Shown here piece after piece: positions 60,301 through 64,000 of a stretch of DNA of 64,000 nt; position 1 is the stretch's first letter; each line of letters starts with the position of its first letter. Position numbers: made by a program. The DNA is from Escherichia coli (GTDB taxonomy: Bacteria > Pseudomonadota > Gammaproteobacteria > Enterobacterales > Enterobacteriaceae). The stretch is taken from assembly GCF_045037415.1 (NCBI RefSeq), contig NZ_CP173438.1; one strand, written 5' to 3'.

Positions 60301-63300
60301 ACTACAACAACACCCAGGAGATCTGGGATGAGTTGCGTCATCTGTGCCCGGATTTCTACGGTGCGACTTACGAGAAAATGGGCGAACTGGGCTTCATTCA
60401 GTGGCCTTGCCGCGATACTTCAGATGCCGATCAGGGGACTTCTTATCTGTTTAAAGAGAAGTTTGATACCCCGAACGGTCTGGCGCAGTTCTTCACCTGC
60501 GACTGGGTAGCGCCAATCGACAAACTCACCGACGAATACCCGATGGTACTGTCAACGGTGCGTGAAGTTGGTCACTACTCTTGCCGTTCGATGACCGGTA
60601 ACTGTGCGGCACTGGCGGCGCTGGCTGATGAACCTGGCTACGCACAAATCAATACCGAAGACGCCAAACGTCTGGGTATTGAAGATGAGGCATTGGTTTG
60701 GGTGCACTCGCGTAAAGGCAAAATTATCACCCGTGCGCAGGTCAGCGATCGTCCGAACAAAGGGGCGATTTACATGACCTACCAGTGGTGGATTGGTGCC
60801 TGTAACGAGCTGGTGACCGAAAACTTAAGCCCGATTACGAAAACGCCGGAATACAAATACTGCGCCGTGCGCGTCGAGCCGATCGCCGATCAGCGCGCCG
60901 CCGAGCAGTACGTGATTGACGAGTACAACAAGTTGAAAACTCGCCTGCGCGAAGCGGCACTGGCGTAATACCGCTTAAACTCACGTTAAAAGCGGTGATA
61001 TTACCCAACGCCTTTGTATCAATCCGGAAACGACTCTCTGTTTCCGGATTTTTTTATACATACCTGCGCAGTCAAACCAGCCTATCCTGGTTATTAGCGA
61101 CGTCTTCTCGGTTGTTCTTCTATTCCAGTCACGATTGCAAATGAGAATTATCTTTACTCAATTCTCATCGCGGCCTAACGTAATAATACTTTACATTTGA
61201 TGAACCAAATTTCGGTAAGGTGAGAAATCATCGACCGTTTAACTCGTTCTATTAACGGGATATTTTGGCGCGATTAATGCAACAAAACCCCGTCTGATAG
61301 AATATTAATAACCTCAAAGTAATTTCAGGGATTGGGAAGCATATGATTAAAAAACTATTACCTTTACTGGTTTTAAGCACAATTTCCGCCACAACCGTTG
61401 CCGCTACACCGCCTAATACGTTGGTTGTAGCCCAGGGGCTGGATGATATTGTGAGCCTGGACCCGGCAGAAGCTAATGAACTCTCAAGTATTCAGACTGT
61501 ACCAAGTCTGTATCAACGCGTAGTGCAACCGGACCGTAATGATCCGACGAAAATTACTCCGATTCTGGCGGAAAGTTGGCAGGCTGACCCCGCAGCCAAA
61601 ACGCTAACCATAAAACTGAAAAGCGATGCGAAATTTGCCTCTGGTAATCCGGTACGCCCGGAAGATGTGATTTACTCTTATGTCCGGGCTGTCACACTGA
61701 ATAAATCCGGTGCGTTTATTCTCAATGTGCTGGGATGGCAGCCGGAAAATATCGCCAGCCAGTTGAAGAAAATCGATGACCATACCGTCCAGGTGCAATG
61801 GAGTGCCGACGTCAGCCCGGCTCTGGCACTGAATATTCTCTCCACACCAATCGCCTCAATTGTTGACGAGAAGCTGGTTGCGCCAAACGCCAAAAATAAC
61901 GACTTTGGTAATGAATGGCTGAAGATGCATTCCGCTGGCAGCGGCGCGTTTAAAATGCGTACTTACCAACCGCATCAGGCCATCGTGATGGAAGCCAACG
62001 CCAGCTCACCAACCGGCGCCCCGAAACTGAAAAGCGTCATCATCAAAAATGTTCCCGATCCGGCAACACGTCGCCTGCTGATCCAACAAGGTGATGCTGA
62101 TATGGCTCGTGATCTGGGAGCCGATCAAATCGATGCATTACAGGGTAAACCTGGCGTAAAAGTGATGAGCATTGCCTCCGCCGAACAGAACTACCTGGCC
62201 TTCAATACCGGTAACAAGGATAACCCGCTGATGAGTAATCCTGCGTTCTGGGAGGCCGCTCGCTGGTTGGTCGATTACGACGGCATCACCAAAAATCTCT
62301 TAAAAGGACAATATTTTACCCATCAGAGTTTCCTGCCCGTGGGCTTTCCTGGAGCACTGGAAGAAACACCGTTTACCTTTAATCCAGCCAAAGCAAAAGA
62401 GATCCTCGCTAAAGCCGGAATCAAAGACCCGCACTTCACGCTTGATGTCGAAAATAAACCGCCATTTATTACCATCGCGCAGTCAATTCAGGCCAGCTTT
62501 GCTCAGGGCGGTGTAAAAGTTGATTTGCTGCCAGCCGCAGGGAGTCAGGTCTACTCTCGCGTTCGCGCCCACCAGCATCAGGGGGCCATTCGTATGTGGT
62601 TGCCTGATTATTTTGACGCACATTCCAACGCCAGCTCTTTCGCCTATAACGATGGCAAATCCAGCACCGTTGCCGGGTTAAACGGCTGGAAAATCCCGGA
62701 ACTGAACAAAGAAACGCTGGCGGCCATCGCTGAACCTGATAGCACTAAACGTCTTGATTTGTATAAGAAAATGCAACAAGAACTACAACGTAGTTCCCCG
62801 TATGTCTTTATTGATCAAGGCAAAACGCAAATTGTCATGCGTGATAATGTGCAGGGGTATCAACAAGGGTTGAATGCCGATATGGTCTGGTTTGATCAGG
62901 TAACCAAATAACCCTGTATGCAACTCGCGTCCAGCCATGTTACCGGGCGCGGTACCAGGGCTGGCCTGTATTGCAGGCCAGCCGCTGATTTATCACTGTA
63001 TGGAAAGATCATGTCTGTCGTTTTTTCCACTCGCGCAAGATGGCGAGGCAAACGCCCTCTGCTCGCGCTGTTGCAAGGGCTGTTTACCGTTGCTCTGACG
63101 CTACTCGGCCTGCTGCTGATTACCTTTGCGCTTTCGGCTCTCTCACCGGTCGATCGCGTACTACAAATCGTTGGCGATCACGCCAGCCAGTCCACCTATG
63201 ATCAGGTACGCCACCAGTTAGGATTGGATCAGCCGTTAGCCGTCCAGTTCTGGCATTACCTGATGAATCTGGCACACGGCGATCTGGGCATCGCCAGCTC

Positions 63301-64000
63301 CACCGGGCAACCAGTACTCCAGGACTTGCTATCAGCATTCCCGGCGACCATTGAACTGGCAACGTTGGCGCTTATTGTCGGTGCTGTTGTCGGCGTCATT
63401 GCGGGTGTACTTTGCGCCCGTTATGTCGGTTCTCCGCTGGATTTCACCGTGCGAACATTAACTCTACTGGGAAATTCCGTCCCTGTTTTTTGGCTTGGTC
63501 TGCTGATGCTGGCGCTGTTCTACGCCAGACTGCAATGGAGTGCCGGGCCGGGCAGGCTGGATGATATTTATCAATTCACCATAGAACCCCGCAGCGGATT
63601 TGCGCTGATTGATACGTGGCTTTCTGGCGATCGCGAGGCATTTACCAATGCAATCAACCATTTGATACTTCCGGTTTTATTACTGGCGTACTTCTCGCTC
63701 GCCAGTATTACGCGCCTGACTCGTTCCGCCTGTCTTGGCGAAATGAATAAAGAATATATTCTGCTGGCGCGCGCCAAAGGGGCCAGCGAGATGACAATTT
63801 TGCTACGTCATGTTTTACCCAACATTCGCGGCACCTTGCTCACCGTTATCGCCCTCGCCTATACATCAATGCTGGAAGGCGCGGTACTGACAGAAACCGT
63901 CTTTTCATGGCCAGGTATTGGGCGCTACCTCACTACAGCGCTCTTCGCGGGTGATACCACAGCAATCATGGGAGGAACGCTGCTGATTGGCGTCTGCTTT

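Follow-up and report, generated by a model that had tools for sequence, protein, structure and literature searches.

Among the K-12 transporters with which the locus described here can be compared, DppABCDF is an importer of dipeptides, haem and 5-aminolevulinate, and DdpXABCDF is a putative D,D-dipeptide importer which is also under stationary-phase control. NikABCDE, like Opp2/Cnt of Staphylococcus aureus, possesses two short ATPases without an oligo_HPY domain, while in the glutathione system GsiABCD, whose genes are ordered A-B-C-D, both ATPase domains are fused in a single protein (GsiA, 623 aa). Transcription of ddpXABCDF is RpoN/NtrC-dependent (PMC8743547).

The window, a 64,000-nucleotide stretch of Escherichia coli DNA (contig NZ_CP173438.1), ends within the promoter-proximal part of a five-gene ABC importer operon of the PepT type (peptide/opine/nickel; TCDB 3.A.1.5), hereafter the cassette, the genes of which are intact. 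This is an ordinary ABC transporter, already annotated in generic terms, and an uncharacterised member of a known family. The explanation that we favour, and consider probable with some reserve, is that of an intact ancestral importer of a small amine-bearing ligand which has been deleted in K-12-type genomes.

Composition of the operon and its K-12 paralogues

The conserved left flank, outside the cassette, is fdhF (formate dehydrogenase H; 58821–60968, + strand). Its selenocysteine codon, an in-frame TGA at 59241–59243, splits it into two ORFs in the ORF list of the window, and its name is that given by the RefSeq annotation at the identical loci of E. coli S3 and ATCC 11775. The first cassette gene (61343–62911, + strand) specifies a 522-aa family-5 periplasmic substrate-binding protein (SBP) with a Sec-type signal peptide at residues 1–21 (61343–61405; MIKKLLPLLVLSTISATTVAA, followed by TPP). 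The second (63011–64000, + strand), for a DppB/DdpB-like permease, is open in translation from the ATG at 63011 to the end of the window, which covers the first 330 of its 349 codons; the gene is expected to end near 64060, and at full length it occupies 22112–23161 in locus L001. NCBIfam matches and six hydrophobic segments underlie its assignment as DppB-like. Both genes had been named in the original prediction and were borne out, as was its statement that yjcO and gltP follow fdhF in K-12: in MG1655, 93 bp separate fdhF from yjcO, and gltP comes next.

The sequence beyond position 64000 was inspected in E. coli S3, which is 100% identical to the window over a 3.1-kb query (60900–64000). 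A second permease and two ATPases were found there, so that the SBP is followed in turn by permeases of 349 and 277 aa, ATPases of 278 and 234 aa, yjcO and gltP. In the loci of E. albertii and Proteus the corresponding Pfam architecture is PF00496; PF19300 and PF00528; PF12911 and PF00528; PF00005; PF00005, and in the same two loci neither ATPase contains PF08352 (oligo_HPY). The cassette shows the sequence features of a PepT system, namely a secreted cluster-C, family-5 (PF00496) SBP, two distinct BPD_transp_1 permeases (DppB-type PF19300 and DppC-type PF12911), each with six transmembrane segments, and two separate ABC ATPases with intact Walker A, Walker B, signature and H-loop motifs.

For all but one of the five subunits the closest K-12 protein belongs to the Ddp system (DdpA 29.5%, E 4e-46; DdpB 43.7%; DdpC 45.9%; DdpF 44.7%), the exception being the first ATPase, which is closer to DppD (39.4%) than to DdpD (37.3%). 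The gene order A-B-C-D-F is common to both operons, and upstream of the cassette lies a possible sigma-54 element. However, the identities are only 29.5–45.9%, that of the SBP being far below the level of an orthologue, and the DdpC model scores 279 bits on the cassette permease against a cut-off of 434. The cassette also lacks ddpX, no dipeptidase gene occurs in any of about 90 orthologous loci, and its ATPases (278 and 234 aa) are without a C-terminal extension, those of Ddp having 328 and 308 aa. With Dpp the cassette shares fold and operon logic, and DppB and DppD are each 39% identical to their counterparts, but the SBP is only 23.7% identical to DppA and the oligo_HPY domain is missing from the cassette ATPases. 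Unlike GsiABCD, the cassette has two separate ATPases; its SBP is 23.7% identical to GsiB.

The binding protein and its ligand

The SBP was compared with known binding proteins by sequence, profile and fold. None of the curated models for NikA, DppA, GsiB, SapA and OppA reached its cut-off: the best NCBIfam match was nickel_nikA (110 bits versus 393), and the SBP scored 107 bits on GsiB (versus 594) and 106 on the DppA equivalog (versus 1005). PF00496 is on record for all SBP homologues. DppA was the best match among solved structures by sequence (E 3e-27), and DdpA the closest paralogue in K-12. An AlphaFold2 model built with 109 diverse homologues (pLDDT 95.6; a version built with 21 close orthologues was discarded at pLDDT 51) has the cluster-C SBP fold; its TM-scores against other cluster-C SBPs are 0.71–0.83 on the length of the query and reach 0.91 on that of the target. 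Foldseek returned GbpA (HbpA) as the top match, with GsiB among the best (TM 0.82–0.87). The structural neighbours (16–22% identical) include binders of glutathione, dipeptides, murein peptides, opines, HEHEAA and nickel chelates, which match about equally. Neither fold nor profile searches of the PDB discriminated among ligand classes. The expectation that the ligand could not be told from sequence alone thus held, since sequence, profile and fold comparisons name none.

At the level of single residues, the equivalent of the amine-binding Asp408 of DppA is D422, in the motif WLPDYFD. It is invariant across the orthologues and present in DdpA, the motif W-x-P-D-(F/Y)-x-D being common to both SBPs. 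As the family models remain below cut-off and the ligands of the structural neighbours are equally matched, the ligand class rests on this one conserved Asp and on weak paralogy; our best guess would be a small peptide-like amine. It counts against this reading that the loci of no genus have a peptidase or other enzyme gene linked to the cassette.

The second contact of DppA, Arg355, which binds the peptide carboxylate, is not conserved, its position in the SBP being V369 or a gap. This speaks for an organic ligand other than a peptide. Candidates would be glutathione or a conjugate, opines and Amadori-type sugar-amines, amino-acid amides, and a toxic antimetabolite to be detoxified by subsequent acetylation. 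GbpA (glutathione), GsiB, AapF (HEHEAA), MoaA and AgaA (opines), and MeAmi_SBP, which binds amino-acid amides (10.1101/2024.02.22.581678), score equal to DppA as structural neighbours. Of 80 species, 23 have a RimJ/RimL-type GNAT acetyltransferase gene directly beside the cassette, now on one side and now on the other, with differing outer contexts; with this exception, the gene neighbourhoods of about 90 loci contain no conserved enzyme or regulator beside the cassette. Yet the acetyltransferase is absent from E. coli and from the loci of Kluyvera, Buttiauxella, Yersinia and Proteus, none of these ligand families was matched above cut-off, and no genus has a catabolic enzyme linked to the cassette. 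We regard a ligand of this kind as possible, and as the lesser prospect beside the amine-bearing peptide.

Nickel is a further candidate. A second nickel or metallophore importer of the Nik/Cnt type, which might supply the Ni-Fe hydrogenases of the formate hydrogenlyase pathway whose genes are close by, would agree with the position of the operon next to fdhF, with nickel_nikA being the top NCBIfam match of the SBP, with the 279.5 bits of the second permease on the Opp2C nickel permease model (cut-off 300), and with ATPases that are both short and without oligo_HPY, like NikD/NikE and CntD/CntF. The NikA score, however, is far under its cut-off, and the Ni-(His)2-binding residues Arg97, Trp100, Arg137 and His416 of NikA are replaced by Gly/Pro, Ile, Ile and Tyr throughout the orthologues. 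For every subunit the Ddp and Dpp components are closer to the cassette than those of Nik, and the cassettes of other genera lie away from fdhF and from hydrogenase genes. The S3 annotation includes no nikR-like or other regulator gene in or beside the cassette, and no NikR operator (GTATGA-N16-TCATAC) was found when the sequence was read directly, the only palindrome being of another kind. A role in nickel uptake is therefore improbable.

Distribution and history of the locus

The left break-point of homology with K-12 was placed at 60974 by megablast and direct sequence comparison with MG1655. Window and K-12 agree through the fdhF stop codon TAA plus TACCG (60966–60973) and diverge from there on, and the cassette genes are not present at the fdhF-yjcO site of K-12. 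In cassette-free genomes the megablast matches end at query base 72–74.

Of 5426 complete E. coli genomes, 1043 (ca. 19%) carry the cassette and 4375 have a contiguous fdhF-yjcO junction of the K-12 type. Together these make up the 5418 genomes with any match, among which there are only two junction alleles. The identity is 99% or more in 1043 of the 1044 records that match. Recognisable carriers include the type strain ATCC 11775, 536, UM146, IMT5155 and ST131, which we take to belong to phylogroup B2. The locus had been called strain-specific: it is indeed variable and missing from K-12, but with about a fifth of the complete genomes carrying it, lineage-specific is the better term.

E. albertii carries the cassette at the same site with the same gene order. 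A contig scan revealed no locus in E. fergusonii, E. marmotae or E. ruysiae, and it missed E. coli as well, despite carriage by ATCC 11775. Orthologues with 72–87% identity occur across the Enterobacterales at varying chromosomal sites, and the orthologue group, which is common in Klebsiella, Enterobacter, Serratia, Yersinia and Proteus, has received only generic annotation. The flanks of about 90 such loci follow genus-level synteny (bet operon, ycjXF-tyrR, proP/patA, argI-nrdD/pyrB, opp). No paper on the cassette came up when the literature was searched with its neighbouring genes, with RefSeq protein accessions, with yjcO and with presumed CFT073 locus tags, and no expression or phenotype data for it were found there. 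The search with yjcO led to an unrelated deletion in the LTEE.

Variability within the species, and the different chromosomal sites across genera, which indicate that the cassette has moved during enterobacterial evolution, would suit a horizontally acquired island, inserted 3' of fdhF in an ExPEC lineage and also, either independently or through transfer, in E. albertii. None of the marks of an island (mobility genes, repeats, atypical composition, a phylogeny conflicting with the flanks) was found, however. No integrase, IS element, tRNA or mobility gene is annotated at the cassette borders in S3, a repeat search revealed no flanking direct repeats, and the GC content (0.46–0.56) is normal for E. 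coli, without anomaly. In the comparison with E. albertii the nucleotide identity is 89–93% for the cassette genes and 86–96% for the flanks, and at synonymous sites too the two copies are as different as the flanking core genes (dS 0.25–0.45 for the cassette, 0.30 for yjcO). The flanking-gene tree is normal, ((K-12, cassette strain), E. albertii), and cassette and core phylogenies match, as shown for these two lineages. Moreover, one junction sequence is common to all cassette-free genomes. We thus hold acquisition as an island to be unlikely.

With a divergence equal to that of the core flanks and neither mobility genes, repeats nor a GC anomaly, the operon seems to have been present in the ancestor of Escherichia and to have been lost by deletion in most lineages of E. 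coli. The E. albertii copy, being at the same site and of core-like divergence, implies that it is the K-12-type strains which carry a deletion. One deletion event would be expected to leave a single junction sequence in all cassette-free genomes, as is found; we infer that a single deletion removed the operon and now marks all K-12-type genomes. The original description of an accessory locus flanking the core is correct as regards a variable region, and incorrect insofar as it implied insertion into a K-12-like backbone.

Loss from most E. coli, a frameshift in the last ATPase gene of one E. albertii-like genome, an IS1 element in the cassette region of one genome, and the SBP gene left alone in some Serratia might together be taken as signs of a decaying, non-functional remnant on its way to loss. 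Against this, all five genes are intact in every carrier locus whose annotation was examined, the catalytic motifs are preserved, and the promoter is conserved across genera. All five genes are under strong purifying selection (dN/dS 0.03–0.11, E. coli versus E. albertii). Decay is thus very improbable indeed, and the operon is best regarded as an intact importer.

Control region and proposed role

Between fdhF and the SBP gene, a terminator scan and an inverted-repeat search located the intrinsic terminator of fdhF (61021–61057, + strand), which has a stem of 11–12 bp (AATCCGGAAAC/GTTTCCGGATT) and a T-run after it. At the same position after fdhF, K-12 has a different hairpin, CAGCCTCC-TTTC-GGAGGCTG. 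Further downstream a 66-nt block (61134–61199, + strand) is identical in alignments of E. coli and E. albertii, the intergenic region around it having diverged by about 14%; it is a candidate promoter/operator. Within it lies a core promoter motif, CTTTAC-N18-CTAACGT (61152–61181, + strand), which may be read as a -35 element TTTACT (61153–61158), a 17-nt spacer and a -10 element TAACGT (61176–61181). Among 76 orthologous loci, 51 have the two-part motif ahead of the SBP gene (more than 10 genera), as against 0.8% of shuffled sequences. Since the default sigma-70 scan called no + strand promoter upstream of the SBP gene, the proposal is based on this cross-genus conservation.

The putative -35 element is overlapped by a perfect 9-bp inverted repeat, ATGAGAATT-N10-AATTCTCAT (61141–61168), found by repeat search, which is conserved in E. 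albertii and absent from other genera; it is a candidate operator for a regulator. Judged by eye against the consensus sequences, it does not fit the sites of Fur, Zur, NikR, ArgR, TyrR or NtrC. Control by FhlA, as for fdhF, was rejected, as the upstream activator repeats (TCGTCA...TGACGA) are missing upstream of the cassette. An Rfam scan of 60900–63100 (E <= 10) gave chance-level matches only, with no riboswitch or leader family.

In a leader extension specific to Escherichia, 61 nt before the SBP start codon, there is a sigma-54-like -24/-12 element, TGGCGCGATTAATGCA (61266–61281, + strand). It is the sole match to TGGCRC-N5-WTGCW on either strand of the window, where 0.57 would be expected. 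In E. albertii the GG and GC are kept and the spacer is changed; in the orthologous loci of other genera the element is not conserved. For this reason, and as no NtrC-type site was recognised upstream of the cassette, the analogy with nitrogen scavenging is a weak one.

In the 99 nt that separate the permease gene from the SBP gene there is a GC-rich hairpin, GGCTGGCCTG-TATTG-CAGGCCAGCC (62959–62983, + strand), detected by the terminator-like scan; the RNA of 62905–63020 folds at -43.7 kcal/mol (z = -3.1). By analogy, the hairpin is probably an mRNA stabiliser or a partial attenuator that would give an excess of SBP.

In the mechanism proposed for the preferred reading, transcription would start from the promoter conserved across the Enterobacterales, overlapped in Escherichia by the lineage-specific palindromic operator and followed there by a long leader with the sigma-54-like element 3' of the promoter. 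The binding protein would capture a small ligand that has a free amine and is most probably a di- or tripeptide or a derivative of an amino acid, and hand it to the B/C permease pair, uptake being powered by ATP hydrolysis at D/F. If the RpoN/NtrC-controlled Ddp system, its nearest K-12 paralogue, is a guide, the role of the operon is probably the scavenging of a nitrogen or carbon source. A bolder proposal, which we rate as rather unlikely, is that this ancestral Escherichia system, which only E. albertii and the extraintestinal-pathogenic lineage of E. coli would have retained, imports an unrecognised peptide-like host or gut metabolite. A dedicated regulator would then bind the palindrome, possibly together with sigma-54, and loss or retention of the operon would contribute to the niche difference from other E. 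coli lineages.

The locus is a clean example of a variable 'accessory' region born of the deletion of ancestral DNA, not of the acquisition of an island. Were its substrate found, one defined uptake capability would set extraintestinal E. coli of the ST131, ST73 and ST95 types, and E. albertii with them, apart from K-12, O157 and the majority of commensals, and a function would be provided for an orthologue group that extends through Klebsiella, Enterobacter, Serratia, Yersinia and Proteus.

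Gene content of the locus

The fdhF gene (58821–60968, + strand), split in two in the list of open reading frames at its selenocysteine TGA codon (59241), is followed by a hairpin and T-run terminator at 61021–61057 (+ strand), detected by terminator scan and as an inverted repeat. Its control region (58640–58769) is intact, with a sigma-54 element, TGGCATAAAAGATGCA, at 58754–58769 and inverted TCGTCA/TGACGA repeats at about 58660–58695 which look like sites for the activator FhlA. After a spacer of 374 nt lies the gene for a 522 amino acid family-5 substrate-binding protein (SBP; 61343–62911, + strand) and, 99 nt further on, a permease gene which begins with ATG at 63011 and has no stop codon before the window ends at 64000 (+ strand), both as the original prediction had placed them. 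The SBP has a Sec signal peptide with predicted cleavage after VAA at residue 21 and no lipobox cysteine; all of its homologs contain PF00496 (SBP_bac_5). The translated permease matches DppB-, DdpB- and NikB-type NCBIfam models.

Escherichia coli S3, 100% identical to the window over 60900–64000, served as a view beyond base 64000, where the second permease and the ATPases that had been looked for were found. The order is SBP (522 aa), permeases B (349 aa) and C (277 aa), and ATPases of 278 and 234 aa. The start of permease C overlaps the stop of the preceding gene, and the two ATPase genes overlap their predecessors by 8 and 14 nt, respectively. Next come yjcO, 110 nt past the last ATPase gene, then gltP and the nrf operon. 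In K-12 MG1655 the order is fdhF, a 93 bp spacer, yjcO, gltP and nrf, as the original prediction had stated for yjcO and gltP, with no cassette genes between fdhF and yjcO. The original prediction of a transporter locus absent from K-12 was a real finding and essentially right. The genes already carry generic RefSeq annotation; no paper characterising the cassette was found in the literature.

Family assignment, orthologs and ligand

When curated NCBIfam models were scored against their own cut-offs, none reached it: NikA (110 bits, cut-off 393), GsiB (107, 594), DppA (106, 1005), SapA (91, 560), CntA (84, 800) and OppA (49, 947). Among K-12 systems Ddp ranks first, or nearly so, for most subunits. 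Protein identities to Ddp, Dpp, Gsi and Nik are 29.5, 23.7, 23.7 and 24.7% for the SBP, 43.7, 39.2, 30.7 and 34.3% for permease B, and 45.9, 40.7, 39.3 and 41.6% for permease C. ATPase 1 shows 37.3% identity to DdpD, 39.4% to DppD, 42.4% to the N-terminal half of GsiA and 39.3% to NikD; for ATPase 2 the values are 44.7% (DdpF), 40.2% (DppF), 43.8% (C-terminal half of GsiA) and 34.3% (NikE). In a MAFFT alignment, Gly/Pro, Ile, Ile and Tyr stand in place of the nickel-site residues Arg97, Trp100, Arg137 and His416 of NikA, and Arg355 of DppA is not conserved. On these model scores, identities and binding residues, the cassette was excluded from the Nik, Dpp, Gsi and Ddp ortholog groups. By sequence, the cassette is best placed as a separate ortholog group of the PepT family, not previously characterised.

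The best sequence match of the SBP to a solved structure is DppA (E = 3e-27). A profile of 109 homologs ranked an uncharacterised Bacillus anthracis SBP, HbpA, DppA, MeAmi_SBP (a binder of amino-acid amides), AapF and GsiB nearly equally, and an AlphaFold2 model (pLDDT 95.6) matched the same set at 16–22% identity. The fold is thus certain and the ligand is not: profile, identity and fold comparisons name no single ligand, and the original prediction had cautioned that sequence alone would not do so. Asp408 of DppA, which holds the peptide alpha-ammonium group, corresponds in the MAFFT alignment to D422 (in WLPDYFD), which is invariant in 21 orthologs and also present as Asp in DdpA. A small amine-bearing, peptide-like compound is tentatively predicted as the ligand.

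Orthologs of the SBP (72–87% identity) occur in many Enterobacterales: Kluyvera, Enterobacter, Klebsiella oxytoca, K. indica, Raoultella, Kosakonia, Leclercia, Lelliottia, Cedecea, Buttiauxella, Yokenella, Trabulsiella, Pseudescherichia, Phytobacter, Mangrovibacter, Serratia, Yersinia, Morganella and Proteus. The loci retain the five-gene architecture, with two short ATPases lacking PF08352, while the site differs by genus (after the bet operon; between ycjXF and tyrR; between proP and patA; between argI and either nrdD or pyrB; beside opp), which marks the cassette as a self-contained module. Across the genera examined the cassette has no constant companion enzyme or regulator, with one partial exception: in 23 of 80 species a RimJ/RimL-type GNAT acetyltransferase (about 231 aa) adjoins it directly, on one side or the other.

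The acetyltransferase gene (locus L023, 7086–7817, and 22 further loci among L018–L097) lies either upstream of the cassette or, on the opposite strand, downstream of it, and the outer flanks of these loci differ. Its nearest structures, 3tcv and 3pzj, are both uncharacterised, and no homolog was detected in E. coli at the DNA level. Three Serratia loci (L003–L005, 10001–11569) carry a lone SBP ortholog (76% identity) between argI and pyrBI, with no adjacent permease or ATPase genes; other Serratia and Yersinia retain the full operon at this site. The orphan may work with a different transporter or with a sensor.

Promoter and leader sequences

E. coli and E. albertii share about 86% identity across the fdhF–SBP spacer, which includes a 66-nt block (61134–61199) without any difference. 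The block contains CTTTAC-N18-CTAACGT, which supplies a -35 element (TTTACT), a 17-nt spacer and a -10 element (TAACGT). Of 76 orthologous loci, 51, belonging to more than 10 genera, have this motif ahead of the SBP gene (0.8% in shuffled controls), and it is taken as the putative core promoter. Overlapping the -35 element is a perfect palindrome, ATGAGAATT-N10-AATTCTCAT (61141–61168), which is Escherichia-specific. By eye, it fits neither the FhlA repeats of fdhF nor the consensus sites of NikR, Fur, Zur, ArgR, TyrR and NtrC. Loci of Klebsiella, Raoultella, Yokenella, Pseudescherichia, Phytobacter and Kluyvera (e.g. L026, L034, L036, L027 and L035) share a different dyad, TTATGC-N8-GCATAA, some 20 nt ahead of the conserved -35 element; this dyad is absent from Escherichia.

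From -10 to ATG the distance is 41–50 nt in most genera and 161 nt in Escherichia. The additional leader holds TGGCGCGATTAATGCA (61266–61281), which alone in the window matches a sigma-54 -24/-12 pattern (0.57 matches would be expected in 128 kb) and is comparable in quality to the fdhF sigma-54 promoter. The element is retained in E. albertii despite a changed spacer, and is not conserved in the orthologous upstream regions of other genera. The nearest paralog, ddpXABCDF, is RpoN/NtrC-dependent (PMC8743547), which makes control of the cassette by nitrogen limitation no more than a testable hypothesis. Between the SBP and permease genes, the 99-nt spacer folds at -43.7 kcal/mol (z = -3.1) with a strong hairpin at 62959–62983; as in other operons with a binding protein, this hairpin probably favors production of the SBP over that of the membrane components.

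Distribution and ancestry

Megablast of 60900–64000 against 5426 complete E. coli genomes gave a full-length match in 1043, with 100% identity to the window in some. Among the other matching genomes, homology ends 5–6 bases past the fdhF stop codon, and a K-12-junction probe is contiguous in 4375. Together these 5418 are all the genomes with any match, so that just two alleles exist. Carriers include 536, UM146, APEC IMT5155, an O6:K2:H1 strain, ST131-labelled strains and the type strain ATCC 11775, all of which we take to be phylogroup B2; O157:H7, O145, O78:H51 and ST69 strains have the K-12-type junction. The locus had been called strain-specific: it is indeed variable and absent from K-12, but its scope is that of a lineage. 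In NZ_OZ040994.1, otherwise identical, the match is broken in two with an IS1 transposase annotated between, which means that an IS1 has inserted within the cassette region. A few matches to the region, in two places for the cassette, are on plasmid-labelled records, probably mis-assigned contigs.

Further gene sets occur near the cassette (ATCC 11775, locus L105, 26911–28991 and 41518–50000; S3, locus L001, 39393–41473). One, located between actP and yjcE, is an LrgB/CidA-LrgA/LysR trio; a second, beside aphA, comprises a sensor kinase, a sigma-54-dependent regulator, an Ldh-family oxidoreductase, a DASS symporter and sucCD/lpdA-like genes. Neither is known to us in K-12, and the latter is presumably similar to the alpha-ketoglutarate island (KguSR) of uropathogenic E. 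coli.

The dN/dS values between E. coli and E. albertii are 0.029 for the SBP and 0.111, 0.069, 0.082 and 0.082 for the remaining genes. Walker A, Walker B and H-loop motifs occur in both ATPases, as does a signature motif, which reads LSGGM in one and LSGGQ in the other. Each permease has six hydrophobic segments, and of 1044 matching records 1043 show 99% identity or more. These properties argue for a maintained operon and against a remnant.

E. albertii TW07627 carries the same five genes at the same site (mdtP-fdhF-cassette-yjcO-gltP-nrf), with nucleotide identities to S3 of 89–93% for cassette genes and 86–96% for flanking genes. Synonymous divergence between the species is 0.25–0.45 across the cassette genes; yjcO has 0.30 and fdhF 0.18. 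The flanking genes are 96–98% identical between K-12 and a cassette strain and 82–96% between K-12 and E. albertii, a normal tree in which K-12 and the cassette strain group together against E. albertii. The GC content (0.46–0.56) is E. coli-like; no integrase, IS element or tRNA is annotated at the cassette, and flanking direct repeats were not found. Synteny, core-like divergence, the flank tree, ordinary GC and the lack of mobility traces together argue for descent from a common ancestor. A one-genome-per-species scan returned E. albertii as the sole Escherichia and no Salmonella or Citrobacter locus; such absences are unreliable, since it also missed E. coli, whose type strain carries the cassette. 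Strain 14EC007 (NZ_CP024131.1, locus L017, 3812–12201), deposited as E. coli, has a cassette 91% identical to the E. coli allele, an fdhF–SBP spacer identical to that of TW07627 and a last ATPase gene with a frameshift in its annotation. The strain is probably either E. albertii under a wrong label or a recombinant.

The K-12 junction keeps TAATACCG on the left and, on the right, TCCTTTCTACAG, homologous to the last bases past the final ATPase gene, with 15 additional bases which create a new fdhF terminator hairpin. The simplest history would place the cassette in the common ancestor of E. coli and E. albertii, with one deletion removing it later. On the comparisons made here, the locus is best regarded as a lineage-specific, ancestral and intact PepT-family ABC importer, which K-12-type strains would have lost by deletion.
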